In this document: positions 32,458 through 50,930 of the stretch, piece after piece | Numbering within the stretch: the stretch's first letter is position 1 | How the letters are laid out: every line of letters starts with the position of its first letter | NCBI GenBank assembly: GCA_002409585.1 | Contig: DHNP01000017.1 | Span: forward strand, 56,468-120,467 | DNA length: 64,000 nt | Reading direction: 5' to 3' | Origin: Ruminococcaceae bacterium UBA5413 | GTDB lineage: Bacteria; Bacillota; Clostridia; Oscillospirales; Acutalibacteraceae | The notes under the pieces: generated by a model | Told to the model about the DNA's origin: nothing | The model's database searches: none | Seen by the model: the letters and a program-made list of their open reading frames with translations, nothing else | Program-made: the position numbers and the translations under genes

Positions 32458-33360
32458 TTAATGCAAAGGCCCCATGATGCCGGCAGCGTTGATTGCCGCG
32501 CCGACGATGCCCGCGTGCGCGTCGAAGGATGAAAGCTCTATCCTGAAAGCGTTCCTCGGGTTTGGGACGCGCAGGTTGACTCTTACGGCGTTTATAAATT
32601 CTTCGAGGGGAAAGCCCTCCATCTCAACCACGCCTCCGCCGAGAATGACGTGTTTTGGGTCTAAAATAGTGATTTCAGTTGCGGCTGCGATGGCGCACAT
32701 GTTTACAGTGTTTTTTGCTTCCTCGCTTGAACGATGCAGCTTAAAGATCTCTTTTACAGGGCAGTTGAATTTTTCAGCGGCAAGTTTTTCCAAAGCTTTT
32801 CCGCTTGCTTTAATTTCAATGCAGCCGGCCTTGCCGCATCCGCACTCCTCTGTGAGCCCGTAAAGCGGTATGTGGCCTAACTCGCATGACGAACCTGTGC
32901 TGCCCCTGTAAATCCGGCCGTCTATGCACATGGCGTTGCCAAGGCCCGTGCCGATGTAAATGCCGATTATAATTCCGCTTTTATCGTAACCTTTTTTCCA
33001 TATGTCGTAGAGAAGTGAAGTGTTTACGTCCCTTTCCATAAATACGGGCATCCCTGTTTTTTTACGCAGGATATCCGCCAGCGGCAAATTGTCAAAGCCC
33101 TTTATGTTTGGGGAGGAGTAGCACATTGAGCGTTTTTCGTCCATCAGCGAAGCTATGGAAAGCGAAAGGCAGCGTATGTTTTCAGAACCGTATTTTTTTA
33201 CTAAAGGCTGAAGCAAGCCGTTTATATAATCATCTTTCCGCACGGCGTCAGAAAGGGCCTCCGTTTTTATTTTAGAAAAACTCAAAAGCTGAAAATCTTC
33301 ACTTACCGCGCCGTATCTTAAATTGGTTCCTCCTATTTCCATGCAAAGGTAATACTTCAT
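32458..33360 (-). CDS. ROK family sugar kinase, D-allose kinase (AlsK)-like
   Basis: EIGGT, RDVN, YIGTGLG, ELGHIPL, CGCGKAGC and ILGGGV; the RDVN and ELGHIPL motifs match my recollection of E. coli AlsK. Confidence 0.75.
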   Translation of the reverse strand: MKYYLCMEIGGTNLRYGAVSEDFQLLSFSKIKTEALSDAVRKDDYINGLLQPLVKKYGSENIRCLSLSIASLMDEKRSMCYSSPNIKGFDNLPLADILRKKTGMPVFMERDVNTSLLYDIWKKGYDKSGIIIGIYIGTGLGNAMCIDGRIYRGSTGSSCELGHIPLYGLTEECGCGKAGCIEIKASGKALEKLAAEKFNCPVKEIFKLHRSSEEAKNTVNMCAIAAATEITILDPKHVILGGGVVEMEGFPLEEFINAVRVNLRVPNPRNAFRIELSSFDAHAGIVGAAINAAGIMGPLH

Positions 33361-33398
33361 CTGTTGGAGACTCCTTTTGTTTAGTGCGCGGCGCGGCT

Positions 33399-34370
33399 TT
33401 AGGCGCGGCCGGCGCTGCCCATAACGTCAATCTTATGAAGGTACAGCTTTTCAAGCTCCGGCCGTATTTTCAGCGTGAAGACGCGGCTGTCTATGGCGCC
33501 GGGGTTTTCGGCAAGGATACGCCTTGTATGCGCGAGGGCGCATATCCAGCCGTCGGTGGCAATGTTTACTTTGCAGACTGCCATTTTAGCAGCTTTGGAT
33601 ATCTGGTCTTCCGGTATGCCCACGGCCTGCTCTATATGACCGCCGTAAGTATTTATCATTTGTACGAACTCAGGCGCTATGGTTGAAGCACCGTGGAGGA
33701 CTATAGGGAATCCAGGGTTGCTTTTTTCTATTTTTTCAAGTATGTCATACCGCAAATCCGGCAGGTTGCCGTTGGCATCCGGCTTGAGTTTTACCATGCC
33801 GTGGCATGTGCCTATGGAAATGGCGAGGCTGTCGGCGCCGGACCTTTTAATGAACTCCGACGCCATACCGGGGTCGGTGTAGAGGCTTTCTAAGTTACCG
33901 CCGCCGCCTTCTTCAGCGCCGGAAAGGATGCCGAGTTCGGCTTCTACAGTAACGCCGCGGCTATGGGCATACTCGGCGGTTTTTTTAGTTAACGCTATAT
34001 TTTCTTCAAAGGGAAGCGCGCTTCCGTCAATCATAATGGATGAGAACCCGTTTTCTACGGCAAGAACGCACTGCTCGTACGTCATGCCGTGGTCAAGGTG
34101 CAGCGCGACAGGAATATCAAGCCCTTCGTTTTTTATACGGTCAACCCCAGACTGCGCGACCCTTGCGAGCATTTCATGCCCCAACTGCCTGTGGAGGTTT
34201 GGGGAAACAAGCAGTATAATGGGTGACTTTTTCTTTATGACGGCATCCATAATGGCGTTGTACTGTTCAATGGTAACGAAATTGAACGCGGGTACGGCAT
34301 AACCGCCGCCGTATGCTTTTTGGAACATTCCGGCAGTGTTTACAAATCCTAAGTCCTTGTAGCTGTACAA
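33399..34370 (-). CDS. fba: Class II fructose-bisphosphate aldolase
   Basis: HLDHG, SSIMIDGS, VEAELG, IGTCHG, VLHGAS and KVN motifs. Confidence 0.9.
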   Translation of the reverse strand: MYSYKDLGFVNTAGMFQKAYGGGYAVPAFNFVTIEQYNAIMDAVIKKKSPIILLVSPNLHRQLGHEMLARVAQSGVDRIKNEGLDIPVALHLDHGMTYEQCVLAVENGFSSIMIDGSALPFEENIALTKKTAEYAHSRGVTVEAELGILSGAEEGGGGNLESLYTDPGMASEFIKRSGADSLAISIGTCHGMVKLKPDANGNLPDLRYDILEKIEKSNPGFPIVLHGASTIAPEFVQMINTYGGHIEQAVGIPEDQISKAAKMAVCKVNIATDGWICALAHTRRILAENPGAIDSRVFTLKIRPELEKLYLHKIDVMGSAGRA

Positions 34371-34410: not shown

Positions 34411-35604
34411 TTATTGGGCGATTGTTTTTTTTAATGACGCATATCGGGGCAGATCGCCTATGAGTGGAACGATATAGTTTAAAAACGATGGTTTTATGCC
34501 GTTGTGTGTTTCATTTATATATTCTGTAGGAAGAAAATTATTGCTTGCCGCCACTTTTTCAAGGTCTATTAAGACAGTTTCGGTTTGGTAAGAAAGCTCT
34601 GATGTCCTGCGCAGCGACACCATTTTTCCGCTTGCGCCTTCCAAAGAGGCTTTTACGGCGGCCGCGCCGAGCAGCACGGCTTCCTTTTGGTCCACTGCGG
34701 AAACATTATGCGCTGAACACCTTTGCATCAGCCCCATATCTATGCAGCGTATTTTGCACGGGAAGCGCTTTTTAAGCAGCATATTTAAGTATGGGGTGAC
34801 GCCGCCCATGTTAAGCGGCGGCTTGTTTGCGCCGCGCGCAGCCGGTTCTTCAAAAAGGTAGCTGCCGGATTGGTTTTTTACGCCTTCGGCTACGACGGCA
34901 AAGCATTTTCCCTTTTGGGCGACGACCCTGCCGATGTCGTTTATAAACGCCTCCTCGTTAAACACGGTTTCCGGAACATAGATTAAATCAGGGCCGAAGC
35001 CTGTTAAACCGGCGGCTGAAGTCGAGGCGGCGAGGTAGCCGGAGTTCCGGCCCATTACTTCGGCCGCCATAATTAAATCGGTATCGTAAACCATCATGTC
35101 CTGTATAAGCTCCGAAATGCTTATTACAAGATGCCTTGCCGCCGACGGGAAACCGGGGGAGTGGTCAATATTTGAAATATCGTTGTCTACCGTTTTTGGT
35201 ATTTCAACAATACTGCATTTGTAATTCACTTTTGAAAGGAATTTGTAAAGCTGTAGGCAGCCGCGCACGGAACCGTTTCCGCCGTTCATAAAAATACAGC
35301 GGATATTGAAACGTTTGAGCGTGCCTAAAAACTTGTGGCAGTCTACATCGCTTATCATATGGCGGCACGAACCGAATACCATGGCCGGAGTCTGCTGTAA
35401 AAGCGAAAATTCCGCGGGCTTTTCAAGTGAAAGGTCGAACAACCTTCCGTTTATGGCTCCGGCTAAGCCGTGCTCCGCTGCGTAGAGTTTGCCTATGCTG
35501 CCGCTGTGTTTTGCGCACTCTGTAATGACTCCGTAAGCCGATGAATTTATGACGGCAGTAGGGCCGCCGGATTGTATATATAATGCATTGTACAAAGAAC
35601 TCAC
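34411..35604 (-). CDS. PfkA-family phosphofructokinase (PPi-PFK-like scaffold, GGNGS/PKTVD active site)
   Basis: QSGGPTAVINSS, GGNGS, PKTVDND and EVMGRNSGY motifs. Confidence 0.85.
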   Translation of the reverse strand: MSSLYNALYIQSGGPTAVINSSAYGVITECAKHSGSIGKLYAAEHGLAGAINGRLFDLSLEKPAEFSLLQQTPAMVFGSCRHMISDVDCHKFLGTLKRFNIRCIFMNGGNGSVRGCLQLYKFLSKVNYKCSIVEIPKTVDNDISNIDHSPGFPSAARHLVISISELIQDMMVYDTDLIMAAEVMGRNSGYLAASTSAAGLTGFGPDLIYVPETVFNEEAFINDIGRVVAQKGKCFAVVAEGVKNQSGSYLFEEPAARGANKPPLNMGGVTPYLNMLLKKRFPCKIRCIDMGLMQRCSAHNVSAVDQKEAVLLGAAAVKASLEGASGKMVSLRRTSELSYQTETVLIDLEKVAASNNFLPTEYINETHNGIKPSFLNYIVPLIGDLPRYASLKKTIAQ

Positions 35605-35611
35605 CTGTTTT

Positions 35612-37120
35612 TCATTTTTGCAGTTTTGGGAAGATGTTTTTTATATTTTTATACAGTTCAGTAAAAATCTGCTGTTGTTCCGCATAAGTTTTTACGTTTT
35701 CGGCAACAGGACATACGGGTTCTTTACAGATATGGACTATTTCCTCGCACGCTTCTTCAATGCAGCCGTAGCAGCCGGTGCCTACCGCCGCCATAATGAC
35801 TGCGCCGGTGCAGGCTTCCTCTGTATTTTCAACTGTGTAGACGGGTTTGTTTAAAACATCCGCCGTTATCTGCCGCCACAAAAAGCTTTTTGCGCCGCCT
35901 CCGGAAAAAATCAGCTTTTGACTTGAAATCCCCATGCTGTCGAAAACTTTTGCGCATTCGCATAAGTTAAAGGAAACGCCCTCCATCGTCGCCCTGAATA
36001 TATGACGGAGGTCATGGTTCATGCCAAGGCCGAAGTAGACGCCTTTCGCAGCGGGGTCCATAAAGGGGGTGCGTTCACCTGAAAGGAACGGAATGAAAAT
36101 CAGCCGGTCAGACCCTGCAGGAACTTCAGCGGCGCCTTCGTCAAGCTCTTTAAACGAAGCGGAGTCATGCAGGACTTTATCCCGCAGCCAGTTAATAGTG
36201 TTGCAGCCGTTAAGCGTACCGCCCTGCACGTACCAACGCCCCGGAACCGCGTGGCACCAAGTCTGGCATCTGAGGTCTGGCTTTTCGGGCGGTTTCCTTA
36301 TAAAAGCCGCTATCTGCGACGCCGTACCGATATTGCATACCATAGTGCCCTCTTTAACAATACCGTTGCCGATTAATGCCATGGCGGAGTCCCCGCCGCC
36401 CATTACTACTTTTGTCTTAGGCGAAAGCCCCGTTTCTTTGGCCGCTCTTTGCGAGATATGGCCGGCAACGTCGAACGGCGCCGCTGTGTCCGGCCATATA
36501 TCTGTTTTAAGGCCGAGCTTTTTTATCAGGGGCATGCACCATTTATTGTTTTTAACCGAGTATGCGAACGTTGACGATGCATCCGTGTAGTCGCAGCCGA
36601 TGGCGCCTGTCAGGCGGTAGCGGATATAGTCTTTAGGAAGCATTACGCTTTTAATTTTTCCGTAAACGGCGGGCCTGTTGTTTTTGAGCCAGAGAAGGGA
36701 ACAGATGAGCATGCCGGCGCCGGGCTGGTTAAGCAAGTCTGACTTTATCAGGCCGCCGGCCGCGCGTAGGACGTCATCGCGCTCTTTTGCGGAACGCTGG
36801 TCCAAATGGATAATTGCCGGATAAACAGGTGCCCCGTCGCTGCCAAGCGCAACCATGCCGTGCATTTGCCCGGAGAGGCCGATGCCGAGGATCTTATCAG
36901 GGGGAACGCATGAAGCCTTGAGCGCTTTGGCAACGGCCGACTTGACAGCGTCCCACCATTGACTTGGGTCCTGCTGCGCGTAACCTGCTTTTGGTATGTG
37001 GATTTCGTATCCTGATTTACCGCTTCCGACGGGCCTTCCGCCCAAATCCGTAATAAGCGCTTTAACACTGGATGTGCCGAGGTCTATACCGGCCAGATAC
37101 TCCATTTTTTTCACCCGCAA
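35612..37120 (-). CDS. FGGY family pentulose kinase (xylulokinase-like)
   Basis: GIDLGTSSVK, SGQMHG, DYTDAS, GGGDSA, GTASQ, PFLSGERTP and GGGAKS motifs. Confidence 0.88.
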   Translation of the reverse strand: MRVKKMEYLAGIDLGTSSVKALITDLGGRPVGSGKSGYEIHIPKAGYAQQDPSQWWDAVKSAVAKALKASCVPPDKILGIGLSGQMHGMVALGSDGAPVYPAIIHLDQRSAKERDDVLRAAGGLIKSDLLNQPGAGMLICSLLWLKNNRPAVYGKIKSVMLPKDYIRYRLTGAIGCDYTDASSTFAYSVKNNKWCMPLIKKLGLKTDIWPDTAAPFDVAGHISQRAAKETGLSPKTKVVMGGGDSAMALIGNGIVKEGTMVCNIGTASQIAAFIRKPPEKPDLRCQTWCHAVPGRWYVQGGTLNGCNTINWLRDKVLHDSASFKELDEGAAEVPAGSDRLIFIPFLSGERTPFMDPAAKGVYFGLGMNHDLRHIFRATMEGVSFNLCECAKVFDSMGISSQKLIFSGGGAKSFLWRQITADVLNKPVYTVENTEEACTGAVIMAAVGTGCYGCIEEACEEIVHICKEPVCPVAENVKTYAEQQQIFTELYKNIKNIFPKLQK

Positions 37121-37142: not shown

Positions 37143-38189
37143 TCATTTTTGTATGATTTCTATTTCCACGTTGTTTGGGTCGGTTATAAGCATGGTCACA
37201 CATTTTAACGCATCTATGTAAGAAGGTTTTTTCCGCACGGAGACGTTGTTTTTTCTGCAGGCTTCGTAAATTAAATTGATATTATCGGTCTCGATACAAA
37301 AATGCCGGTAAATATCCCTGCTGGTTTCACGCACAGAGGCCGCGTCAGTATGTGTAAGGTAATGGATTAATTCAAGGCGTGTCTGATTTGTAAGGTCAAA
37401 GTAGGTCAGCGTATGGTCGCCCATGTCTATAAAGCCTGATTTTTTAAGCCCGAGTATCCGCGAATAAAAGTTTTCAGATTTTCCGAGGTCCGAAACGTTT
37501 ATGGCTATGTGGTTGATGGAAAGCACGCTTGCCGTGCCCGCAGGCGGTAAATCACCGTTTAAGGAGCGCGCGTGTTCCAAAGGCGTTAAATGGTGCGAGT
37601 CATTTAAAAGCCGTAACATAGTGCGGTCTTTCAGCACGTCTATTATGGTCACTGAGGCGTTGTCAAGTTCAAGGCAGCGGTAAAAGCGGCAGCTCATGTC
37701 CAAAAGGGAAAAAATAATTAATTTAAGTATGCCGCCGTGCGTCACAACCGCGACGGTTTTTTCTGAAGCGCCGTAACGGCTTTTTATATCCTGCACGGCG
37801 GCATCAACGCGGAGCTTCGCGTGGGCTAAAGAACCCTCGCCAGGCATAGGGTAGAAAAACGGCTCGCGCCGGTAATTTAAAAAATCATTGCCAAAGCTGC
37901 TTTTAAGCTCGTCCCTTGTAAGGCCGTCCCATTTGCCGAAATCAAGTTCGCTTAAACGCCCGTCGGCGGTTATACCGGCCGGCCTGCCTGCCGCAAGCGC
38001 GCGGGCGGTATCATACGCGCGGCTCAAAGGCGAAGTATAGATTATATCGATAGGCATGCCTTTTAATGACTCGGCAAGCAGCCCGGCCTGCAGTTTTCCG
38101 CGCTCAGAAAGGGGGGTGTCGCTTCTTCCCTGGTAGCGCCCCTCGGAGTTCCACACGGTTTCAGCATGCCGTATCAGTAAGAATCGCAT
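37143..38189 (-). CDS. Histidine phosphatase fused to a C-terminal VOC (glyoxalase-like) domain
   Basis: RHAET...ELDFGKWDG...VTHGG phosphatase core, then NHIAINVSD...LELI...RHFCI...DPNNVEIEI with the four H/E/H/E VOC metal ligands, all in one open frame. Confidence 0.85.
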   Translation of the reverse strand: MRFLLIRHAETVWNSEGRYQGRSDTPLSERGKLQAGLLAESLKGMPIDIIYTSPLSRAYDTARALAAGRPAGITADGRLSELDFGKWDGLTRDELKSSFGNDFLNYRREPFFYPMPGEGSLAHAKLRVDAAVQDIKSRYGASEKTVAVVTHGGILKLIIFSLLDMSCRFYRCLELDNASVTIIDVLKDRTMLRLLNDSHHLTPLEHARSLNGDLPPAGTASVLSINHIAINVSDLGKSENFYSRILGLKKSGFIDMGDHTLTYFDLTNQTRLELIHYLTHTDAASVRETSRDIYRHFCIETDNINLIYEACRKNNVSVRKKPSYIDALKCVTMLITDPNNVEIEIIQK

Positions 38190-39013
38190 GGCTGGCTTTC
38201 CTTATCAGAGTCGTCATGGCTTTGGGAAGAAGCTACAATCACGTTTGTAACCGATTGGAACGAGTCGACATCCTCTTTTTCGATGCCGTCGTCGGTTATC
38301 AGGGCGGTAATGCTTTGCAGGTCGCTTATCTTTGCAAATGTTACCGTGCCTATCTTGCTGCTGTCGCTGAGGACATAAATTTCGCAGCTTGAGGTAAGCA
38401 CCTGCTGTATGCCGAGCGCATTGTCAAGGTTAGGCGTTGTGACGCCGTTTCTAAGCGTAACGCCGTTGCAGGAAACAAACGCCTTGTCTATATTCAGCCG
38501 TCCCAGCAATTCGCTTTTGATGGGCGATATTATGCTGTGATATTTGTTGCGGACGAAACCGCCAAGTATAAATATAGTGTAGTCGGTGTTTTCTTCCAGC
38601 CATGAAGCAAAATGGATATCGTTCAATACTACGGTCAGGTTTTTTCTCTGCGGCAGCAGTTTTATGAGTTCTCCTGACGTCGTCCCGGATGTTATGGCTA
38701 TGGTGTCGCCGTCCTCAATAAGCTGCAGCGCTTCACGTGCGATGGACCTTTTTTGGTTCAGCATTTTTGATTCCTTTGTAGCCGGAAGCAGCTCCCTGCT
38801 GGTTTTTGTGTTGCTTATTGCGCCGCCGTGGGTTCTCGTTAAAAGATGCTCGTTTTCAAGGTCCCTTAAATCGTTCCTTATGGTCGAGGCGGATACTCCA
38901 AAGATATCGCATAGTTCCGGAACTACAATTTTGCCGCGGTTGTTTATTAATTCGATTATTTTGCCTTTGCGTTCTTCGGCAAACATTGTGGTATTGTTTT
39001 GCTCGCAATCCAT
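38174..39013 (-). CDS. DeoR/GlpR family transcriptional regulator
   Basis: ERKGKII...VSASTIRNDL...RTHGGA HTH, SGTT, and DSSKIG sensor domain. Confidence 0.93.
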   Translation of the reverse strand: MDCEQNNTTMFAEERKGKIIELINNRGKIVVPELCDIFGVSASTIRNDLRDLENEHLLTRTHGGAISNTKTSRELLPATKESKMLNQKRSIAREALQLIEDGDTIAITSGTTSGELIKLLPQRKNLTVVLNDIHFASWLEENTDYTIFILGGFVRNKYHSIISPIKSELLGRLNIDKAFVSCNGVTLRNGVTTPNLDNALGIQQVLTSSCEIYVLSDSSKIGTVTFAKISDLQSITALITDDGIEKEDVDSFQSVTNVIVASSQSHDDSDKESQPCDSY

Positions 39014-39113
39014 ATGTTATCATCTCCATTCCGTACATTCTCATTTTAACAAAGTAAACTGCTATTGTAAATAGCTTTTTAGCATTTGATACGATATTTT
39101 AAGATATTTTCAC

Positions 39114-39143
39114 TTGACACGCGTATTATTTATTGATTATAAT
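39114..39143 (+). promoter_or_regulatory. sigmaA promoter of the transketolase operon
   Basis: Perfect TTGACA-N18-TATAAT. Confidence 0.7.
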
Positions 39144-39274
39144 AAAATACGTTAATAAATAGTACTATATAATACAATACAGCAACAGACAAACAGCGGC
39201 AAGCCTTTAACAACAATGTGCATAAACTGCGGTGCAGAAATTCATTTAATGCGGAAAAGATGATGATATTTATT

Positions 39275-40123: not shown

Positions 40124-40140
40124 GGAAAGCGGAGGAATTT

Positions 40141-43434: not shown

Positions 43435-43457
43435 AATGCATAAGAGGGAGGAAAGCA

Positions 43458-44027
43458 ATGGACTTTGAGGAAAGATATGAAGAAACCTGCGGCTGCGTGA
43501 TTGACGAACTGCAAAGGGCGCTGCGCAGCATAGACCCATCGTCGGTTGAACGGCTTGCAAAGGCGGTGCTTGACGCAGACCAGGTGTTCTTTGTAGGCGT
43601 GGGGCGCGTTATGCTGTCGCTTCAGGCGGTAGCAAAAAGGCTTGCTCATATAGGCGTAAAGGCACACTGCGTCGGGGAGATAACCGAACCCGCCATAACC
43701 GAGAACGACCTTCTGATAGTCGGCTCAGGCAGCGGCTCGAGCCTGTTTCCGGTAGGCATTGCAAAAAAAGCGAAAAGCATACACTGCAAAATAATACATA
43801 TAGGCTCTAACCCTGACGGCGAGATGAAAGGTATAGCCGACTTTATGGTAAGGGTACCTGTGCGGACAAAGCTTTACCTAAGCGATGAAATCGACTCCGC
43901 ACAGCCTATGACGTCGCTTTTTGAACAGACGGTTCTGCTTTTGGGGGACATCGTCGCAAAAATGATAATTGACGAAAAGAAGATTGACATGAAAGCCCTG
44001 TGGAGATATCATGCCAATCTGGAATAG
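43458..44027 (+). CDS. hxlB: SIS-domain sugar-phosphate isomerase (6-phospho-3-hexuloisomerase-like)
   Basis: GVGRV, GSGSG and QPMTSLFEQ...HANLE C-terminus typical of the HxlB family. Confidence 0.8.
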   Translation: MDFEERYEETCGCVIDELQRALRSIDPSSVERLAKAVLDADQVFFVGVGRVMLSLQAVAKRLAHIGVKAHCVGEITEPAITENDLLIVGSGSGSSLFPVGIAKKAKSIHCKIIHIGSNPDGEMKGIADFMVRVPVRTKLYLSDEIDSAQPMTSLFEQTVLLLGDIVAKMIIDEKKIDMKALWRYHANLE

Positions 44028-44036: not shown

Positions 44037-45098
44037 GTGGACAAGAAAACACTTATGAAATACACCGGCAGCCTGCAGCAGGCCGCTTACGTGCGGCCTG
44101 TGAGGTACACCGAGGGCCGCGCCGCCATGGATGCTTTCCAAATAAAGAACGGGAGCCTTATGTTTACCGTTATGGCGGATAAATGCCTTGATATAGGGGA
44201 ACTGTCATATAAAGGCATAAATTTTAATTTCCTGTCAAAGCCAGGCCTGAACGGAAGGAACCCGTTCGACACGGCAGGCAGCGAAGCGCAGAGAAGCATT
44301 ATGGGCGGGCTTTTTTTTACGGCCGGCCTTGAAAACATCTGCGCGCCGTGCACGTTGGGCGGACACGACTACCCTATGCACGGCAGAATGAGGACAACAC
44401 CCGCCGAGCATCTCTCGGGCGATGCCTTTTGGGATGGTGACAGCTACATCCTGACGGTTTCAGGTGAAATGCGTGAGGCGGAACTTTTTGGGGAAAACAT
44501 GCTGCTCCGCAGGAAAATTGAAACGAGGTACGGGGAAAAGTCGGTTACAGTGCATGATGAATTTGAAAACCTGTCGTTCAGGCCTGAGCCTATGATGCTC
44601 CTGTACCACTGCAATGTCGGGTTTCCGCTGCTTGACGGGAACTGCCGCGTCTTTCTGCCGGCAAAAAAGGTTACGCCGAGGGATGAAGCGGCGGCCTGCC
44701 ATATGGAAACGTGGAATAAGATGGAGCAGCCCTTGGACAACGAACCGGAGCGCGTCTATATTTTTGACCTTGCCGCGGATATGTACGGCAATACCATGGC
44801 CGCCGTCTTAAATATGGAAACATATATGGGACTTAAAATAGAGTGGAACCGGAAATACCTGCCGTACTTTATGGAATGGAAGTCTGTGGCGTCCGGCGAC
44901 TATGTAATTGGATTTGAGCCTGCTAATTCAAGCGTTTACGGCAGGCCTTATCATACAGCACACAAATGCCTGCACACGTTGGACCCGTTCTGCAAAGAAA
45001 CGATAAACCTTAAGTTTACTGCCATTGACGGAAAAGAAGAATGTTTGGAGACGGAAAGCAAAATTGAAAAATTACTGAAGGGAGATACTGAAAAATGA
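44037..45098 (+). CDS. DUF4432 / aldose 1-epimerase-like protein
   Basis: DKCLDI, GGLFFTAG, PMHGR, LYHCNVGFPL and GFEP motifs. Confidence 0.85.
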   Translation: MDKKTLMKYTGSLQQAAYVRPVRYTEGRAAMDAFQIKNGSLMFTVMADKCLDIGELSYKGINFNFLSKPGLNGRNPFDTAGSEAQRSIMGGLFFTAGLENICAPCTLGGHDYPMHGRMRTTPAEHLSGDAFWDGDSYILTVSGEMREAELFGENMLLRRKIETRYGEKSVTVHDEFENLSFRPEPMMLLYHCNVGFPLLDGNCRVFLPAKKVTPRDEAAACHMETWNKMEQPLDNEPERVYIFDLAADMYGNTMAAVLNMETYMGLKIEWNRKYLPYFMEWKSVASGDYVIGFEPANSSVYGRPYHTAHKCLHTLDPFCKETINLKFTAIDGKEECLETESKIEKLLKGDTEK

Positions 45099-45793
45099 AA
45101 AGGTCGGAAATAAACGCGGTTATTAAAAAATTCGAAGCACTTCTCGCACAGCATAATTTTGAACTGCCCCCGTTTTGCAAATTTACACCGGAAGAGTGGC
45201 AGTCAAAGAGCCGTGAGTACGATGAAATACGCGACAATATGCTCGGGTGGGACGTTACGGACTACGGCGAGGGGCACTACGACAAGCTGGGGCTTGCGCT
45301 CATTACCCTGCGCAACGGAAATTTCCATAAGAAAGATTTGTACCCTAAGGTTTTTGCAGAAAAAATAATGATGATTGAAGAAGGCCAGGTTTCCCCTATG
45401 CACTTCCATTGGAACAAGATGGAGGACATCATAAACAGGGGCGGCGGGAATATTGTCTTTAAACTTTATAATGCCGATAAAAACGAACAGCTTTCAGATA
45501 CCGACGTGACTGTTTTCCAGGACGGCAGAAATTACAAGGTGAAAGCGGGGCGGGAGATTATTCTTCACCCCGGTGAGAGCCTGACGCTTTATCCGTACTA
45601 TTACCACGAGTTTACCATTCAAAAAGGTTCGGGCACGACGCTTGTCGGTGAGGTTTCCATGACAAACGACGACAACACCGACAACCGTTTTTTAAAACCG
45701 TTAGGCAGGTTCCCCGTTATAGAGGAGGACGAACCGCCTTACAGGCTGCTCTGCACCGAGTACCCTGGCGCCGCGGGCAGCAGCGCGGGCTAA
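45095..45793 (+). CDS. D-lyxose/D-mannose isomerase (cupin, DUF1498 family)
   Basis: MKRSEIN, GWDVTDYG, TLRNG, PMHFHWNKMEDIINRGGG and GEVSMTNDDNTDN motifs. Confidence 0.9.
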   Translation: MKRSEINAVIKKFEALLAQHNFELPPFCKFTPEEWQSKSREYDEIRDNMLGWDVTDYGEGHYDKLGLALITLRNGNFHKKDLYPKVFAEKIMMIEEGQVSPMHFHWNKMEDIINRGGGNIVFKLYNADKNEQLSDTDVTVFQDGRNYKVKAGREIILHPGESLTLYPYYYHEFTIQKGSGTTLVGEVSMTNDDNTDNRFLKPLGRFPVIEEDEPPYRLLCTEYPGAAGSSAG

Positions 45794-45973
45794 GCGGCGG
45801 AAGGCAGGCGGTGCTTTTGCGTTATAATGTAATTAATTCCCGCTTCGGATTCAAAATGTTAATAAAAACTACGAATTAAGAATAAAAATTAAGATTGCGG
45901 AACTGCACGCCAATACTCACAAAAGAAATATGCACAAACCACTAAAAAGTGATAATTAAATATAATTTTATTG

Positions 45974-46002
45974 TTGACTTTTAGTGTGATATGATGTAAA
46001 AT
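45974..46002 (+). promoter_or_regulatory. sigmaA promoter of the sugar ABC operon
   Basis: TTGACT-N17-TAAAAT. Confidence 0.65.
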
Positions 46003-46151
46003 ACAGTTAACAACAGAAAACAAAACTAATCTGCTTAGAAACCCAGTACAAATACAGCAAAACGAGACAAAACAATAGTAAACCAACAAACGTCTATTAA
46101 AAAAGACGTTTCAGGAACAATGGCACTATTCAACACATGAAAGAGGGAGAA

Positions 46152-47288
46152 ATGAAAATGAAGGCAAAATTCGTAAGCGCGGTTCTTAGCGTCTTTCTGT
46201 TAATATCCACATTAGCGGGATGCTCCGGGGGAGGGACCGCTTCATCGGCGGCAAGCGGCAGCACAGCTTCAAAGGAATCTTCTGCTGCGTCTGATACTTC
46301 GGCAGAGTCTGACGATGACGTTTACCACTTGGGTATATGCGTACATTCCCTTGACAACGAGTATTGGGCGCAGGAAGCGGCCGGCGCGGAGCTTTTCGCT
46401 AAAAGCGTAAAAAATTGCAAATACGATGTTTTGACCTGCAACAGCGACGACAACAAGCAGATTCAAGGTATTAAAGATTACATAGCGCGTTACGGCAAAA
46501 AGGCCATTTTTGTAGTTGACCCGTCTTCTACGGCAAACACCGCGAATATCGCGGATGTATGTGAACAGTCCGGCAACTATGTCGTTATACTTGCCCACAG
46601 GGCTGACGGCCTGTACCCTAAAGATTACCCGCACTTTGTTGTAAGCCTTATGCTTTCAGACTATGACAACGGCTACAAAACCGCATGTAAGCTTTTTGAC
46701 TCCATCGGCGGTAAAGGCGAGGTCTGTGAGCTTCAGGGGCAGCTTGGCGACGACAGCGCGGCAAACCGCCACAAGGGCTTTGAGGCTGCGCTTAAAAAGT
46801 ATCCGAACATAAAGTGCGTAGACACGCAGGTTGCCAACTGGGAACAGTCCAAGGCGATGAGCCTTACGGAAGAATGGCTTGTAAGCCACCCGAACATAAA
46901 GGCGATTTACAGCGCAAACGACACGATGGCGCTCGGAGCTGTAGAGGCGCTTAAAAACAAAGGCATGAACACAAAGATTGCGGTCTGCGGCTGCGACGGA
47001 ACTAAAGCTGCGCTGAATGAAATCAAAGCGGGCAACATGCTCTGCACAATAGCAAACAACGGCTTCTGCATTGCCGGCTACGGTGCTTCCTATGCTTATC
47101 AGGCGGCTACCGGCACGCTGGACGTTTCATCCATGGATCCGGCTAAACGCTTGATTTATTGCAAAACGACATATGTAGACAGCTCAAACGTAGATGACGT
47201 AATCGACAAATTTATTACGAAAGGCGATCCCGGATACGATTATTCAGACCTTAGTTACTGCATCGACAGCTACCAGAAAGTCTCATAA
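46152..47288 (+). CDS. Sugar ABC transporter substrate-binding lipoprotein (RbsB-like)
   Basis: LAGC lipobox, Ser/Ala linker, NRHKGF, ANWE and NDTMALGA. The start is 46152 or 46158. Confidence 0.9.
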   Translation: MKMKAKFVSAVLSVFLLISTLAGCSGGGTASSAASGSTASKESSAASDTSAESDDDVYHLGICVHSLDNEYWAQEAAGAELFAKSVKNCKYDVLTCNSDDNKQIQGIKDYIARYGKKAIFVVDPSSTANTANIADVCEQSGNYVVILAHRADGLYPKDYPHFVVSLMLSDYDNGYKTACKLFDSIGGKGEVCELQGQLGDDSAANRHKGFEAALKKYPNIKCVDTQVANWEQSKAMSLTEEWLVSHPNIKAIYSANDTMALGAVEALKNKGMNTKIAVCGCDGTKAALNEIKAGNMLCTIANNGFCIAGYGASYAYQAATGTLDVSSMDPAKRLIYCKTTYVDSSNVDDVIDKFITKGDPGYDYSDLSYCIDSYQKVS

Positions 47289-47322
47289 AAGCAGCATGGC
47301 TTTTTGATAAATGAAATGAAAG

Positions 47323-47358
47323 TTTGGGCTCTCCAAGCGTAGGTGAGCCCAAATTTTT
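47323..47358 (+). terminator. Hairpin between the SBP and permease genes (terminator or mRNA stabiliser)
   Basis: TTTGGGCTC...GAGCCCAAA plus T5. Confidence 0.6.
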
Positions 47359-47392
47359 GGTAAAAGTACAAATAAGGAGGGTATCTGTTTAG

Positions 47393-48418
47393 ATGAAGAA
47401 AAAATTGGTTGAATATATGGGATCTTCAACAGTGGCCCAGCAGTTTACGTATAAAGTCAAACTGGACGCGAAAAATGAAAAAATCCGGCGGTATGCCCCG
47501 CTTATCCTGCTTATAGTTATGACGATAATATGTGCATCAAGCCAAAAAAGTTTTTTTACATGGGGCAATATCGTTAACCTCATGTACCAGATGTCTATCC
47601 CTTTGGTTATATCTGTAGGCCTGACTTATGTTTTGCTGCTTGGCAGCATAGACCTTTCTATCGAGGGTGTTATGGGTTTTGCGGGCTCGCTGGTTGCCTA
47701 CCTCGTTTTAAACCGTACCAACAGCAACAATTTCGGTATTTGGGGCATTATTTTTGTTATTATACTCTGCACGCTTGTAGGCGCTTTCACAGGGGTACTT
47801 CACGTAAAGGCAAGGATAGCCTCGTTTATAGTTACATATGCCATAGGGTGCATAATGACAGGCTTTGCGGTGCTTGTCTATAACAGCAACCCCATACAGG
47901 TTTCGGAGCCTTTGTTCGACAGCATTTCAAGAGGAAGCTTTTTACAGATCCCGTATATAACACTTATCTCTTTCCTTATTTTCCTCATAGGCGCGGTCAT
48001 CTTAAAGTACACCGCGTTCGGACGCGCCGTATATGCCATAGGAGACAACGAGGTGGCTACACGCTCCGCTGGTATTAATGTTGATTTGGTGAAAATAAAG
48101 GTCTTTGCGCTTTGCGCGTGCACCGCGTGCCTTGCAGGCATTTTGCAGTGCGTAAGACTTAAGATAGGGCAGTCCAGCCTCGGCACCGACCAAATGTTCC
48201 CGGTAGTAACGGCCATTGTCGTCGGAGGCGGCAGCCTTTACGGAGGCAAAGGCGGAGCGTTCCAATCGTTTATAGGCGTTTTGATTTACACGGAGCTGGC
48301 CAACTGGCTTACTTTGATGGGTGTTGACCCTTATTTCAAGGAAGTTATTTTGGGCTTGATTATAATAATAGCCGTTACGCTTACTATTGAACGCAACCGT
48401 CAGACGATATCGAAATGA
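47393..48418 (+). CDS. Sugar ABC transporter permease (RbsC-like)
   Basis: GSIDLS, FGRAVYAIGDN and AIVVGG motifs. Confidence 0.9.
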   Translation: MKKKLVEYMGSSTVAQQFTYKVKLDAKNEKIRRYAPLILLIVMTIICASSQKSFFTWGNIVNLMYQMSIPLVISVGLTYVLLLGSIDLSIEGVMGFAGSLVAYLVLNRTNSNNFGIWGIIFVIILCTLVGAFTGVLHVKARIASFIVTYAIGCIMTGFAVLVYNSNPIQVSEPLFDSISRGSFLQIPYITLISFLIFLIGAVILKYTAFGRAVYAIGDNEVATRSAGINVDLVKIKVFALCACTACLAGILQCVRLKIGQSSLGTDQMFPVVTAIVVGGGSLYGGKGGAFQSFIGVLIYTELANWLTLMGVDPYFKEVILGLIIIIAVTLTIERNRQTISK

Positions 48419-48431
48419 AGAGGGCCGGAGT

Positions 48432-49952
48432 ATGAAAGAACTATTATTTGAGACGAAAGGTATTGGCAAAACATACGGCACCAACACCGTTTTGCATGAT
48501 ATAGACATGAAGGTTTACAGCGGTGAAGTCATCGGCCTTATCGGTGAGAACGGCGCCGGAAAGTCGACCTTGATGAAACTTATCTGCGGAGCCGAAAAGC
48601 CTTCTATGGGTTCAATGTATCTGAGGGGCGAAGAGCACCACAGCAACTCTATTTTGGAGTCAAACCACCAGGGCATAGGGATGGTATTTCAGGAGCAGTC
48701 ACTTGTAGGGGCTCTTACCATAGCGCAGAACATATTTTTGGGACGTGAAAAAAAATACTCCAAGGCGGGGTTTGTCAACTGGGCGGCCATGAACCAGGAC
48801 GCTAAAAAAACTCTCGGACAGGTTGGCCTGAATTTTGACCCGAACAAAAAAGTAAGGGATTTGGACTTTGCCGCAAGGCAGATGGTTGAAATCGCGAAAG
48901 TCCTTAACGTGGTTACAGAGTCGGCTGAAGGCCATGCCGTTATACTGCTTGACGAACCGACGACCGTGCTTTCAAACGAGGAAATCGAAAACCTGTTTAA
49001 GCAGATAGAACGTATGAAAAAAGAGGGCAACGCGGTTATCTTTATTTCGCACAGGCTGGATGAGGTCCTTAAAGTCACCGACCGCATATATGTGTTTAAA
49101 GACGGCGCCTGCACTGCGGATATGAACACGAAGGATGCCGACGAGAGCGTACTTTACGAAAAGATGGTAGGACGCTCCACCACAGGCGAATTTTACCATG
49201 AAGACAGGCAGACAGCCCCATCGGACGATGTTGTGCTTGAAGTCAACGACTTAAGCTTATTCGGTATTTTCAACCATGTGGGTTTCAAACTTAAAAAAGG
49301 CGAGGTTTTAGGCCTCTGCGGAGTTGAAGGCTCCGGCAAAGAAGCGTTGTGCTCGGTACTTATGGGCGACGAGGGGCAGACAAGCGGCACAATGTCTATG
49401 GACGGCAGGGAGGTAACGTTTAAGAACCCCTGCAAAGCGAGACGGTCCGGCATAATATGCGTTCCGAAAGAACGGCGCGACGAAGGCATCATTGGAATAT
49501 TGTCCATATCGGATAATATAGTTATCTCCCATATGGAGCAGATATCCAGCAGAGGATACGTTTCCGGCAAAAAAATGAAGAAAATCTCTTCTGACTGGGT
49601 GCAAAAGCTGAAAATTAAATGTGTTTCTATAAATGACCGCATAAACCAGCTTTCAGGCGGCAACGCGCAAAAGGTGATTTTCGCGCGGGCTTTGGAAAGC
49701 GGATGCCATATACTGATACTAAACCACCCGACGCGCGGCGTTGACGTAGGCTCGAAAGAGGAAATATACAGCTTGATCCGCGATATCACTGAAAAGGGAA
49801 ATTCGGTAATACTTCTTGGCGACACTCTTGACGAGTGCATAGGAATGTCAAGCAGAATAATAGTTTTAAAAGATGGAGTCATAAGCGGCGAGTTCGACTT
49901 CCCGGCAGGGGAGAAGCCTTCACAATTTGATATTGTAAAGATGATGATGTAA
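48432..49952 (+). CDS. Sugar ABC transporter ATP-binding protein (CUT2, two NBDs)
   Basis: GENGAGKST, LLDEPT, LSGGNAQK and PTRGVDVG motifs. Confidence 0.92.
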   Translation: MKELLFETKGIGKTYGTNTVLHDIDMKVYSGEVIGLIGENGAGKSTLMKLICGAEKPSMGSMYLRGEEHHSNSILESNHQGIGMVFQEQSLVGALTIAQNIFLGREKKYSKAGFVNWAAMNQDAKKTLGQVGLNFDPNKKVRDLDFAARQMVEIAKVLNVVTESAEGHAVILLDEPTTVLSNEEIENLFKQIERMKKEGNAVIFISHRLDEVLKVTDRIYVFKDGACTADMNTKDADESVLYEKMVGRSTTGEFYHEDRQTAPSDDVVLEVNDLSLFGIFNHVGFKLKKGEVLGLCGVEGSGKEALCSVLMGDEGQTSGTMSMDGREVTFKNPCKARRSGIICVPKERRDEGIIGILSISDNIVISHMEQISSRGYVSGKKMKKISSDWVQKLKIKCVSINDRINQLSGGNAQKVIFARALESGCHILILNHPTRGVDVGSKEEIYSLIRDITEKGNSVILLGDTLDECIGMSSRIIVLKDGVISGEFDFPAGEKPSQFDIVKMMM

Positions 49953-49964
49953 GAGGTCGATAAA

Positions 49965-50930
49965 ATGACGAAAAAGCTTAATCTTTCCGATATATCCTAT
50001 TCTTTTTCAAAGTATATGTACATTGTAAGCATCGTTTTGGTTTTCCTTGTGTTTACCATTATGTCACCGCAGTTTCTCAGCCTTTACAGCCTGCAGAACT
50101 TAGCCCTTGAAACTGCGCCGATGCTGCTCATGTCGTGCGGTATTTCCTTTGTAATCTTTACAGGCGGCATTGATTTGGGGACAGGTTCCATCGCTTCATG
50201 CACCTGCGTCATAACGGGGCTGTATGTAAGCCAAGTCGGAAATTCCATAATCCTGCTCATGCTTGTTGTAGGATGTGTAATGGGGGTTATTAACGGCATA
50301 CTCGTGTCAAAGCTTAAACTGCCTTCATTTATTGTTACTTTGTGTACGACAAACTTTTGGAATTTCGTTGCCCTCAGGCTCTCGCCGAGCGGCTCACAGA
50401 TTATTCCTCTTAATAAAAGGAGTATGGTAAACTGGGCTACTAAGGATGTAATCGGATTTCCGGTTATTTTTTGGATAGCGTTAGCGATAACCGCCCTGCT
50501 TTATTTTATACAGCAGTATACAGTATTCGGCAAAACTATTTTATCCGTCGGGGCAAATACGAGGGCGACGCGCATGGCCGGCGTTGACACAGATAAGGCG
50601 CAGATAGCCGCGTTTGTCATATGCGATGCGTGCTGCGCGCTGGCAGGCGCTTTCTATGCCTACAAATTAAAAAGCGCGGTGCCTACAGTCGGCCTTGACC
50701 TTAACCTGCTGTCTATAGCTGCGGTAGCCTTAGGCGGAGCTTCCATGGTAGGAGGCCGCGGGAGCATTCTGCACACTCTTGTCGGAGTTATAACCATTAC
50801 GGCGGTTACGTCGGGACTTGAAATTATAGGCTGCAATGCGCTTTGGAAAGACATTATCATAGGCATGATTTTAATTTTGGCAGTGTGCTTAAATTCAGAT
50901 TCTAAAGGCAGAGACCTCATAATTAAATAA
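49965..50930 (+). CDS. Sugar ABC transporter permease (second subunit)
   Basis: GGIDLG, FGKTILSVGAN and AAVALGG motifs. Confidence 0.9.
   Translation: MTKKLNLSDISYSFSKYMYIVSIVLVFLVFTIMSPQFLSLYSLQNLALETAPMLLMSCGISFVIFTGGIDLGTGSIASCTCVITGLYVSQVGNSIILLMLVVGCVMGVINGILVSKLKLPSFIVTLCTTNFWNFVALRLSPSGSQIIPLNKRSMVNWATKDVIGFPVIFWIALAITALLYFIQQYTVFGKTILSVGANTRATRMAGVDTDKAQIAAFVICDACCALAGAFYAYKLKSAVPTVGLDLNLLSIAAVALGGASMVGGRGSILHTLVGVITITAVTSGLEIIGCNALWKDIIIGMILILAVCLNSDSKGRDLIIK

Follow-up and report, generated by a model that had tools for sequence, protein, structure and literature searches.

The window analyzed here, a stretch of 64,000 nucleotides, contains an 18.5-kb sugar-uptake and breakdown island made up of 14 enzyme and regulator genes and a four-gene ABC importer, all intact and closely spaced. 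Genes were called from open reading frames (ORFs) and from Pfam and NCBIfam matches, which reproduced every gene and coordinate listed in the first-pass annotation. The two divergent arms that it described were also found, but the DeoR gene, which it had placed between them, is simply the first gene of the minus-strand operon. Within each arm, neighboring genes overlap by up to 16 nt or lie up to 40 nt apart, except for a 343-nt spacer in front of the importer. No glycoside hydrolase was found within the locus among the ORFs and Pfam and NCBIfam matches, as had been claimed, and the pgi, ROK glucokinase and pyk genes said to lie elsewhere in the window were located at 5123-6460, 17108-18055 and 57877-59640, respectively. 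The locus ends at a bidirectional intrinsic terminator at 50962-51006, a hairpin with an 18-bp perfect stem (-30.4 kcal/mol, z = -5.6). A ROK-HTH regulator gene at 51159-52268 is probably part of the neighboring ChvE-type ABC operon, from which it is transcribed divergently.

The minus-strand operon opens with a DeoR-family repressor (38174-39013; Pfam HTH_DeoR and DeoRC). The adjacent gene (37143-38189) encodes a two-domain protein in which a histidine phosphatase (residues 4-197) is fused to a VOC/glyoxalase-fold domain (residues 225-345), both identified by Pfam. Stand-alone VOC proteins, 129-141 aa long, adjoin the FGGY kinase or ABC genes in related loci L100 and L105 and a JGI contig, and also occur in a tagatose-like module. 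The XylB-like FGGY kinase of the island (FGGY', 35612-37120) passed the xylulokinase equivalog cut-off (TIGR01312, 431 versus 380 bits), and its top PDB match was E. coli xylulokinase, 2ITM. Its orthologs in Enterocloster, Blautia and Ndongobacter (47-57% identity) adjoin orthologous ABC genes, and equally long FGGY genes occupy the equivalent position in L100, L101, L104 and L105; FGGY' consistently accompanies the two-permease importer. Two dedicated enzymes come next, a phosphofructokinase (PFK)-family protein (34411-35604; NCBIfam PRK14072, 384 bits, cut-off 273) and a class II ketose-bisphosphate aldolase paralog (33399-34370; Pfam F_bP_aldolase, 7.5e-80). The PFK has a PPi-PFK-type scaffold with Gly104/Lys124-type motifs (GGNGS at 108, PKTVDND at 136) and is only 26% identical to the other PFK of the genome. 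TIGR00167, the ketose-bisphosphate subfamily, was the only subfamily model passed by the aldolase, which is 75% identical to its Enterocloster ortholog and 45% identical to a housekeeping class II aldolase on contig C2. The final gene (32458-33360; Pfam ROK, 2e-49) encodes an AlsK-like ROK-family sugar kinase without an HTH domain, scoring 256 bits against the NCBIfam allose kinase model (cut-off 253), with E. coli D-allose kinase, 3HTV, as its top PDB match. Its Enterocloster orthologs (60% identity) directly follow the aldolase, and size-matched ROK genes are found at the same position in L100, L101 and L104.

Both arms start from a common divergent promoter region of ~205 bp (39014-39217), with a 12/12 sigma-70 match at 39114-39143 on the plus strand, a 10/12 match with an extended TG at 39071-39043 on the minus strand, and palindromes and direct repeats at 39123-39180. 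DeoR is likely the regulator of both promoters; its orthologs in Enterocloster (54-55% identity) have the same role, and L104 also has a DeoR gene there.

The plus-strand arm begins with a dedicated split transketolase (Pfam), comprising an N subunit (39218-40123), whose true start may be a few codons downstream of 39218, and a C subunit (40141-41094). Orthologs with 63-71% identity adjoin the cassette described below in Enterocloster and L037 (63-68% in L037), and split transketolase genes are also found in the L098, L100, L104 and JGI contexts; the genome itself has two more, on C21 and C4. The following gene (41103-41765) is a copy of the deoxyribose-phosphate aldolase gene deoC (TIGR00126, 247 bits, cut-off 117). 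It is an accessory part of the island, present in L098 and L100 and absent in Enterocloster and Blautia. It duplicates a second deoC on C10 (70% identity), and DeoC is elsewhere part of nucleoside operons; there is no sign of deoxyribose as the main substrate, nor of apiose or hamamelose, all of which had been suggested.

The remaining genes of this arm form a five-gene cassette, also on the plus strand. The first (41783-42727; Pfam PfkB, 1e-50) encodes a fructokinase-like ketose kinase of the PfkB family, whose top NCBIfam match was fructokinase (217 bits, under the cut-off) and top PDB match the fructokinase 5EY7; orthologs in related loci are 50-65% identical. The second, RpeL (42730-43434; Pfam, 5e-47), encodes a divergent enzyme of the ribulose-phosphate-3-epimerase family that falls under the cut-offs for both rpe (170 versus 212.6) and AlsE (142 versus 271). 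Its catalytic residues H39, D41, H72 and D184 are invariant, its signature is HFSPSxPLG, and orthologs (58-67% identity) were found in 4 of 301 Lachnospiraceae genomes, the next best match reaching at most 39%. The third gene (43431-44027) encodes a single-SIS-domain isomerase (TIGR03127, 169.5 bits, cut-off 160) with B. subtilis YckF/HxlB as its top PDB match (5e-33). This protein is a paralog of 6-phospho-3-hexuloisomerase; because L018 and L052 also encode a genuine HxlB (234-237 bits), a different specificity is expected for it. The fourth (44037-45098; Pfam DUF4432, 3.7e-88; PDB 3TY1, 3e-25) has an aldose-1-epimerase/mutarotase fold and is 33% identical (343 aa) to an unassigned "aldose 1-epimerase" gene of the D-tagatose cluster validated in E. 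coli Nissle; genes of a sister clade (DUF4432 plus isomerase) adjoin GH2 beta-mannosidase and GH38 and GH125 alpha-mannosidases. The fifth (45095-45793; Pfam Lyx_isomer, 6e-100) encodes a cupin D-lyxose/D-mannose isomerase (LyxI) that shares 50% identity with E. coli O157 Z5688/ECs5070, whose structure (PDB 3KMH) was deposited as D-lyxose isomerase, with metal ligands H103, H105, E110 and H171 invariant in 71 sequences. This gene order is kept in 57 of 86 related loci, 10 others being interrupted by contig ends, and was found across Lachnospiraceae, Oscillospiraceae, Synergistota and alpha-proteobacteria.

The surroundings of the cassette bear on a route centered on D-tagatose or D-talose, which we regard as unlikely. 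The isomerase would convert D-talose to D-tagatose, or tagatose would be imported; DUF4432 would provide the furanose form, PfkB would produce tagatose-6-P, and the HxlB-like and Rpe-like enzymes would carry out a new epimerization, inverting C4 via 3-keto-hexulose-6-P to yield F6P, while PFK and aldolase cleaved tagatose-1,6-bisphosphate in a parallel branch. The Nissle DUF4432 homolog adjoins the tagatose kinase, and the Nissle route likewise requires PFK and a class II aldolase (PMC9720028). In ~15 loci the cassette is flanked by genes for a TagK-like kinase (top NCBIfam match TagKinase, 256 bits), a GatY-like aldolase and a GatZ-like protein, and the E. coli O157 lyxose-isomerase locus includes both a PfkB kinase and a "ketose 1,6-bisphosphate aldolase". 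The different specificity expected of the SIS protein is consistent with this route, as is RpeL being nearer Rpe than AlsE, which would suit a substrate equivalent to Ru5P extended at C1. However, the chemistry is wholly hypothetical, the PfkB of the window is fructokinase-like (93 bits against a TagKinase cut-off of 420, and 26% identical to Nissle TagK), D-talose is very rare, the GatZ-like epimerase beside the L013 cassette would be redundant, and the FGGY kinase and transketolase are unaccounted for.

The importer (46137-50930, plus strand) was assigned by Pfam and NCBIfam to the CUT2 family and consists of a lipoprotein-type substrate-binding protein (SBP, 46137-47288), a permease (47393-48418), a double-cassette ABC ATPase (48387-49952) and a second permease (49965-50930). 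The plus-strand spacer between LyxI and the SBP (45794-46136) contains a 47-nt inverted repeat (45940-45986) that extends into a promoter-like site (45974-46002). Orthologous four-gene sets in Blautia are 60-66% identical; for the SBP, identity ranges from 52 to 82% across L098-L105. The top PDB match of the SBP was 2RJO (3e-53), whereas the D-allose SBP headed its NCBIfam matches with a score of 125, below the cut-off of 335.

A D-allose/D-allulose (psicose) island with an AlsB-like importer for either sugar is unlikely, though allose and allulose, like lyxose, are still candidate substrates, as first proposed. The AlsK-like kinase would yield allose-6-P, the SIS protein would replace RpiB, which is absent from the locus, as allose-6-P isomerase, and RpeL would act as allulose-6-P 3-epimerase to give F6P; PfkB would phosphorylate free allulose, and PFK and aldolase could cleave allulose-1,6-bisphosphate. 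Gut Firmicutes are known to use allulose via AlsE (PMC12216980), which is among the matches of RpeL, and the ROK kinase and SBP matches point the same way. Nevertheless, the SBP and RpeL scores are below the respective D-allose SBP and AlsE cut-offs, RpeL is nearer to true Rpe, and the core cassette never includes the ROK kinase, yet always contains DUF4432 and the lyxose/mannose isomerase. Such a pathway also gives no role to the FGGY kinase and transketolase. The described D-lyxose isomerases are not known to act on allose.

Rather than the single oversized super-pathway first envisaged, the island is a mosaic of three modules, each also occurring alone: the cassette (A), the two-permease importer with its FGGY kinase and VOC protein (B), and DeoC (C). 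In many cases module B is equipped with a split transketolase, PFK, class II aldolase and AlsK-like ROK kinase of its own. The modules recur jointly in several gut and fermenter bacteria. In Enterocloster aldenensis/hominis, the transketolase, DeoR, FGGY, PFK, aldolase, ROK kinase and SBP genes are joined to the cassette (55-75% identity); matching gene families accompany a cassette or SBP ortholog in varying order in L098, L100 and L104, and in Blautia the ABC, FGGY and cassette genes form one string. Contig C4 of this genome carries another locus with the same logic as the island, which combines ABC, FGGY, split transketolase, HisPhos and DeoR genes but has a dehydrogenase where the island has the isomerase.

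That the cassette, the importer with its kinase, the pentose-phosphate paralogs and deoC are independent adjacent operons for different substrates is improbable. The modules do occur apart (module B is missing from ~90% of cassette loci, and the cassette from 4 of 8 importer contexts), the inverted repeat at the importer's own promoter-like site is unlike that of the divergent region, and DeoC is accessory. On the other hand, A and B have been brought together in four or more different gene orders, one of them a 16-kb co-directional string in L100, and this argues for functional coupling; the lineages involved share only 55-85% protein identity, and no strong terminator was found between cassette and importer (45794-46136).

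The reading that we prefer, at a probability of roughly 40%, is that one or a few free aldoses with lyxo/manno-configured C2 and C3 hydroxyls are imported, isomerized to the ketose, phosphorylated and passed on as Xu5P or F6P. The leading candidates are D-lyxose and D-mannose, with D-talose a further possibility. The earlier view of a route for free monosaccharides is supported by the combination of kinases with a CUT2 importer, an aldose-ketose isomerase and a mutarotase-fold protein, and by the lack of a hydrolase; the enzyme set, as also noted earlier, matches no described pathway. The sugar would enter through the two-permease system, DUF4432 would switch the aldose or its ketose product between ring or anomeric forms, and the cupin isomerase, with its conserved metal ligands, would form xylulose, fructose or tagatose. 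By their best family matches, FGGY' would phosphorylate the pentulose and PfkB the hexulose. RpeL and the dedicated transketolase would distribute xylulose-5-P, and the always-paired Rpe-like and HxlB-like enzymes may convert a cassette-specific ketose phosphate to a central sugar phosphate. No xylose isomerase was found in this genome, Enterocloster or Blautia.

PFK and aldolase, previously taken for private lower-glycolysis paralogs, are indeed dedicated copies, but are better read as a transaldolase substitute or as cleaving a ketose bisphosphate, because no transaldolase was found in the 91%-complete genome. They would convert sedoheptulose-7-P via sedoheptulose-1,7-bisphosphate to DHAP and erythrose-4-P, a bypass documented in clostridia (PMC7029132), or else cleave a ketohexose bisphosphate as in the Nissle tagatose route. 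The convergence of these two enzymes and transketolase on sedoheptulose-7-P would also suit import of sedoheptulose, or of D-glycero-D-manno-heptose isomerized to it by the cupin enzyme, with the FGGY kinase producing sedoheptulose-7-P. Mammalian sedoheptulokinase is an FGGY-family enzyme, and importer-FGGY modules without the isomerase, which would suit a free ketose, occur in some genomes. We nonetheless consider a heptose route very improbable: FGGY' is closest to xylulokinases, no heptose-specific family match was found (GmhA, 20 bits for the SIS protein), and PfkB, RpeL and SIS are unaccounted for.

Several observations sit uneasily with a lyxo/manno-configured substrate. Mannose would not require the RpeL/SIS pair, and lyxose explains only half of it; the AlsK-like kinase, VOC and phosphatase domains and DeoC have no step in the scheme; the tagatose-type genes beside the cassette suggest a C4-epimeric hexose; and D-lyxose and D-talose are scarce in nature. 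As ~90% of cassette loci have no FGGY kinase, PfkB must be the sole cassette kinase in most of them. Conversely, FGGY' may act on a directly imported sugar, since Ndongobacter massiliensis has the importer and FGGY module without the lyxose isomerase, its canonical xylA-xylB pair being elsewhere.

The core of the island, a widespread and uncharacterized five-gene cassette, most likely acts on a free sugar of the mannose/lyxose type. The island would have been built up from separable modules, and is accessory in its host, a Caproiciproducens-like Acutalibacteraceae genome.

The ORF map and the Pfam and NCBIfam scans bore out the anatomy described in the first-pass annotation, which had described, at 32458-50930, two divergent arms around a DeoR gene; pgi, the ROK glucokinase gene and pyk were also all present elsewhere in the window, as it had stated. 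The minus-strand operon starts with the DeoR gene (38174-39013), followed by a histidine-phosphatase::VOC fusion (37143-38189), which directly precedes an XylB-like FGGY kinase (35612-37120; 431 bits with TIGR01312, cut-off 380). Then come a phosphofructokinase (PFK; 34411-35604) assigned to the PPi-PFK subfamily PRK14072 (384 bits vs 273), a class II ketose-bisphosphate aldolase (33399-34370) and an AlsK-like ROK kinase (32458-33360) that passes its model only marginally (NF007251, 256 bits, cut-off 253). On the plus strand, a split transketolase (39218-41094) and DeoC (41103-41765) come first. Next are a kinase of the PfkB type (41783-42727), a member of the Rpe family (42730-43434), a protein with one SIS domain that scores above the HxlB cut-off (43431-44027), a DUF4432 protein (44037-45098) and a cupin D-lyxose/D-mannose isomerase (45095-45793). 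Beyond a 343-nt spacer lies a CUT2-type ABC importer (46137-50930), whose two permeases differ from each other. We refer to the five genes from PfkB to the isomerase as the cassette.

Within each arm the intergenic distances range from a 16-nt overlap to a 40-nt gap. In the 205-nt divergent region, positions 39114-39143 match the sigma-70 consensus perfectly, and a good site faces the other way. A further promoter-like site (45974-46002) lies upstream of the gene for the importer's solute-binding protein, and a 47-nt inverted repeat found nowhere else in the window overlaps it. The locus ends in a strong hairpin at 50962-51006 (z = -5.6), and no comparable terminator was found in the interval between the isomerase and solute-binding protein genes. 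The importer promoter and the divergent region were searched for an operator in common, and none was found. The starts of two ORFs are uncertain: that of the transketolase N subunit (39218) begins with GTG some 20-30 codons ahead of the family match, and that of the ATPase (48387) begins with TTG and has a 32-nt overlap with the permease gene. Just upstream of the locus, 28896-30896 encodes a 666-aa Fe-S flavoenzyme of the BaiCD/bilirubin-reductase/OYE type that scores below every equivalog cut-off.

Related loci were gathered with a scan based on a DUF4432 alignment, which returned 80 species-level loci; a single-protein PfkB scan of genome contigs gave no matches. All window proteins were then mapped onto the scan loci and those collected earlier, 86 in total. 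The order PfkB, Rpe-like, SIS, DUF4432, isomerase was found in 57 of the 86, and 10 more were interrupted by contig ends. Carriers belong to the Lachnospiraceae, the Oscillospiraceae and the Synergistota, with a permuted order in alpha-proteobacteria, and include many gut, rumen and fermenter Clostridia; the DUF4432 protein itself has numerous homologues at 57-72% identity. Full-text literature searches found no published pathway with this combination of enzymes and hardly any mention of DUF4432, and searches for Z5688, 2RJO or lyxose isomerase combined with the other enzymes yielded nothing useful. We class the locus as a binding-protein-dependent rare-sugar catabolic island built around an uncharacterised, widely distributed core.

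The cupin isomerase matches PF07385 over its full length (333 bits, residues 1-223 on profile positions 1-222) and shares 50% identity with E. coli O157 Z5688, while scoring 276 bits against the NCBIfam Gram-negative equivalog, whose cut-off is 350. Residues H103, H105, E110 and H171, which we take to be the cupin metal ligands (Z5688 numbering), are invariant in 71 aligned isomerase sequences, including Z5688. The Rpe-like protein forms a tight orthogroup, with matches of 58-67% in 4 of 301 sampled Lachnospiraceae genomes and everything else at or below 39%. It retains the catalytic His/Asp tetrad and carries an invariant HFSPSxPLG signature, at a position where Rpe and AlsE have HFVPN, and it reaches neither the rpe nor the AlsE curated cut-off.

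In sequence the SIS protein is similar to B. subtilis HxlB/YckF, and it exceeds the cut-off of the HxlB-type 6-phospho-3-hexuloisomerase model (TIGR03127, 169.5 bits vs 160). HxlB and the 3-hexulose-6-P synthase HxlA form the ribulose monophosphate (RuMP) pair. The window's genome lacks HxlA (TIGR03128 absent), and formaldehyde fixation by the RuMP route was rejected for it. In Faecousia and alpha-proteobacteria, the cassette SIS gene occurs within a few kilobases of a genuine, much higher-scoring HxlA-HxlB pair, and the two SIS proteins are only 31-35% identical. Since it coexists with the genuine pair, the cassette SIS protein is a distinct paralog, presumably with another specificity than HxlB. 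Genuine HxlB-HxlA pairs directly adjoin the cassette and importer in a Faecousia MAG (L018:15503-16729) and in alpha-proteobacteria (L052:2944-4312), the latter in the same operon as a NanE-ROK (ManNAc) fusion and a GntR regulator.

It is conceivable, at rather long odds, that the cassette constitutes an undescribed route in which the SIS and Rpe-like proteins act as a two-enzyme epimerase and DUF4432 converts ring forms, tied in this genome to a self-contained, transaldolase-free pentose phosphate module. Starting from a ketohexose-6-phosphate, the HxlB paralog would shift the carbonyl group from C2 to C3, the Rpe paralog would invert C4, and the HxlB paralog would then return the carbonyl, turning, for example, tagatose-6-P into fructose-6-P. 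DUF4432 would be a dedicated mutarotase or pyranase feeding PfkB-type ketose kinases.

Four clues bear on the cassette substrate. First, a sister clade of the DUF4432 protein, mostly still accompanied by the isomerase, adjoins GH2 beta-mannosidase, GH38 and GH125 alpha-mannosidases and oligosaccharide importers. Here the DUF4432-isomerase pair would most simply convert released mannose to fructose. We also noted DUF4432, with or without the isomerase, in Lachnospiraceae mannoside-utilisation loci (L079, L083, L087, L090, L027, L029 and others), which contain the GH2 beta-mannosidase, GH38, GH125, a CUT1 ABC importer and a two-component system. Second, PfkB-DUF4432 pairs are also found alone, and in E. 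coli Nissle 1917 a full-length DUF4432 homologue annotated as 'aldose 1-epimerase family' (ECOLIN_RS18670, L103:6903-7949; 33% identity over 343 aa, E = 7e-63) adjoins the tagatose kinase gene. These two arrangements point to a role of DUF4432 in the ring form, and suggest that it readies the form required by PfkB ketose kinases. Third, some 15 loci of Lachnospiraceae have a second gene set flanking the cassette, made up of a CUT2-type importer, a ROK kinase, a GatY-like aldolase, a VOC protein and a TagK-like kinase. Identity to the tagatose enzymes of Nissle is 38-39% for the kinase and aldolase of this set, and one of these loci adds a GatZ-like gene. The last gene of this partner module (L013, L091, L095 and others) encodes a 212-aa P-loop protein (AAA_18/AAA_33/zeta-toxin-like) that may be a small-molecule kinase.

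The fourth clue is the E. coli O157:H7 Z5688/ECs5070 locus (ECs5067-5073), where the isomerase is accompanied by a kinase of the PfkB family and an annotated 'ketose 1,6-bisphosphate aldolase'. Like the window, this locus places a cupin isomerase, with the same metal ligands, beside a CUT2-type importer, a PfkB kinase and a class II aldolase for ketose bisphosphates. However, it lacks DUF4432, the Rpe-like and SIS proteins, the FGGY kinase and the transketolase, its importer has one permease, and its PfkB kinase and aldolase are only 25-31% identical to those of the window. Jointly, the four clues favour manno- or lyxo-configured aldoses, although they could also accommodate a C4-epimeric hexose (talose, tagatose).

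A tagatose or talose route with a new two-enzyme C4 epimerisation is rather unlikely for this locus. The experimentally validated D-tagatose cluster of Nissle 1917, whose route uses PfkA and tagatose-bisphosphate (TBP) aldolase (PMC9720028), shares the CUT2 importer, a PfkB ketose kinase, a class II aldolase, DeoR and the requirement for PFK, but is without the isomerase, the Rpe-like and SIS proteins, the FGGY kinase and the transketolase. The window PfkB is not a TagK orthologue (26% identical to Nissle TagK; 93 bits vs 420 for NCBIfam TagKinase). The window aldolase may or may not be of the TBP type; it is 32% identical to the Nissle TBP aldolase, and the generic ketose-bisphosphate subfamily model is the only one it passes. 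Import and catabolism of allose or allulose is similarly improbable. The E. coli alsRBACEK operon resembles the locus in its AlsK-like ROK kinase (best PDB match 3HTV), AlsB-like CUT2 solute-binding protein and Rpe-family epimerase, but the window epimerase reaches 141.6 bits against the AlsE cut-off of 271 (NF007266) and the solute-binding protein 125 against 335. The als operon has one permease (AlsC) and the RpiR-type AlsR, whereas the window has two permeases and DeoR, and RpiB, although present in the genome, is not in the locus.

The importer and FGGY kinase form a second module. Orthologues of the solute-binding protein (52-85% identical) always came with the same permease-ATPase-permease set, and in 7 of the 8 contexts examined the importer lay beside the FGGY kinase; in L098 the kinase would fall beyond the contig end. 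Often a small VOC protein, fused to the phosphatase in the window, is next to the kinase. Ndongobacter massiliensis has only the importer, FGGY kinase and regulator, to which L105 adds VOC, L101 adds PFK, aldolase and ROK kinase, and a JGI contig adds transketolase; the fullest contexts are complete unions with the cassette. In two loci (L041:5306-5983, L100:14795-15523), though not in the window, a 225-242 aa protein with a trigger-factor C-terminal domain is encoded between importer and kinase. The Ndongobacter genome has no lyxose isomerase and carries a canonical xylA-xylB pair at a separate site, so the kinase orthogroup is not the housekeeping xylulokinase; its substrate may be imported as such. 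D-xylose was rejected as the locus substrate, given this separate xylAB and the lack of xylose isomerase in the window's own genome, Enterocloster and Blautia. An autoinducer-2 (Lsr-like) system was also rejected: the likeness is limited to the two-permease layout and the FGGY kinase, and no orthologue of LsrB, LsrK, LsrF or LsrG was recognised. For none of the proteins of the locus was an Lsr-specific model the top hit or at its cut-off, the scores being 19 bits for LsrB and 227 for LsrK (cut-off 528).

Cassette and importer module were found together in at least four orders: transketolase-DeoC-cassette-ABC in the window and L098; cassette, inverted transketolase, then DeoR-FGGY-PFK-aldolase-ROK-ABC in Enterocloster aldenensis/hominis, L037 and L104; a single 16-kb string transketolase-PFK-aldolase-ROK-ABC-VOC-FGGY-cassette in L100; and ABC-FGGY-cassette in Blautia. 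Where window proteins were mapped (Enterocloster, Blautia, L037), the orthologues were 51-75% identical. That the modules were brought side by side repeatedly and independently is the chief argument for their cooperation, and it makes mere adjacency of separate operons distinctly improbable. The modules also exist apart, so the locus is a mosaic and not a single inseparable pathway.

The genome encodes further copies of the aldolase, PFK, Rpe and DeoC and two additional split transketolases. Deoxyribose, one of the sugars first listed for growth tests, was given low weight, since DeoC is an accessory duplicate. No match to transaldolase (PF00923) was found in the 91%-complete genome, in which the controls were positive. 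In transaldolase-free clostridia, PFK and aldolase stand in via sedoheptulose-1,7-bisphosphate (PMC7029132), so the locus would have everything needed to bring pentose phosphates to glycolysis. The cellulolytic clostridia likewise combine the absence of transaldolase with a transketolase, a PPi-PFK-type PFK and a class II aldolase; the window enzymes differ in being extra paralogs in a substrate-specific locus. The PFK that phosphorylates sedoheptulose-7-P in the clostridia studied is of the PPi type (PMC7029132); the window enzyme passes the PPi-PFK subfamily model yet has GGNGS/PKTVDND motifs with the ATP-type Gly104, which leaves its phosphoryl donor uncertain. By analogy with PfkA and TBP aldolase of the Nissle tagatose route, the PFK-aldolase pair could instead cleave a ketohexose bisphosphate. 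A heptulose as the imported substrate is very unlikely.

A D-apiose transketolase pathway, reportedly described by Carter et al. in Nat Chem Biol in 2018, follows a shared logic, from CUT2 importer to isomerase, kinase and dedicated split transketolase. Its isomerase, however, is a xylose-isomerase-like TIM barrel (PF01261), whereas that of the window is a cupin, and the window has many extra enzymes. Apiose, also among the sugars first listed for growth tests, was rejected, as no locus protein matches PF01261. A second transketolase-centred sugar locus lies outside the window on another contig of the same genome (C4:57429-67289), where DeoR diverges from an FGGY kinase, a split transketolase, a Zn-dependent MDR dehydrogenase, a CUT2 solute-binding protein, ATPase and permease, and a histidine phosphatase. 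This locus follows the same logic and seems to be a polyol-to-ketose counterpart, the dehydrogenase serving as the ketose-forming step.

The locus is accessory in its host lineage: the DUF4432 gene is without an orthologue in all 17 genomes of the same genus, and relatives offer matches of 32-37% identity at best. The host genome (1.93 Mb, 48 contigs, 91% complete) encodes a pyruvate kinase 74-76% identical to the Caproicibacter and Caproiciproducens enzymes, and the window sequence was detected in metagenomes from fermentation, sludge and manure; a search for RNA-seq runs containing the locus found none. As a possible regulator of the cassette, the ROK-HTH gene at 51159-52268 was rejected, since its identity to the ROK genes of the related loci, cassette-linked regulators included, is just 20-31%, and it is divergent from the next, ChvE-type ABC operon, which it probably regulates instead. 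It is 68% identical to a second ROK-HTH regulator at 62576-63700; the two flank this ChvE/GguAB-type multiple-sugar ABC operon (52698-56635), pyk and other genes.

Our preferred reading, with a probability of roughly 40%, is that a free lyxo- or manno-configured aldose is imported, isomerised and phosphorylated, and enters metabolism via Xu5P/F6P. DUF4432 would convert ring forms, the cupin enzyme would isomerise the aldose, and the product would be phosphorylated by the FGGY kinase if a pentulose or by PfkB if a hexulose. Beyond the entry point at Xu5P/F6P, the dedicated transketolase, PFK and aldolase would form a transaldolase-free pentose phosphate module under DeoR. The lyxo/manno-aldose reading draws on the best family assignment of most genes and fits the lack of xylose isomerase in the window's genome, Enterocloster and Blautia. 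It is weakened by the occurrence of the importer module without the isomerase, and it accounts neither for the obligatory pair of Rpe-like and SIS proteins nor for the AlsK-like kinase, DeoC or the phosphatase and VOC domains.

If a substrate can be assigned to the cassette, this would provide a function for DUF4432 and, as the Nissle gene is a DUF4432 homologue, would also explain the orphan gene of the E. coli B2-phylogroup tagatose cluster. It would add two new specificities in the families of Rpe and HxlB, both of which have industrial use in making rare sugars, and would reveal which rare sugars, low-calorie sweeteners included, are fermentable by the carriers. The island illustrates how a transaldolase-free organism packages a private transketolase, PFK and aldolase with a substrate-specific front end.
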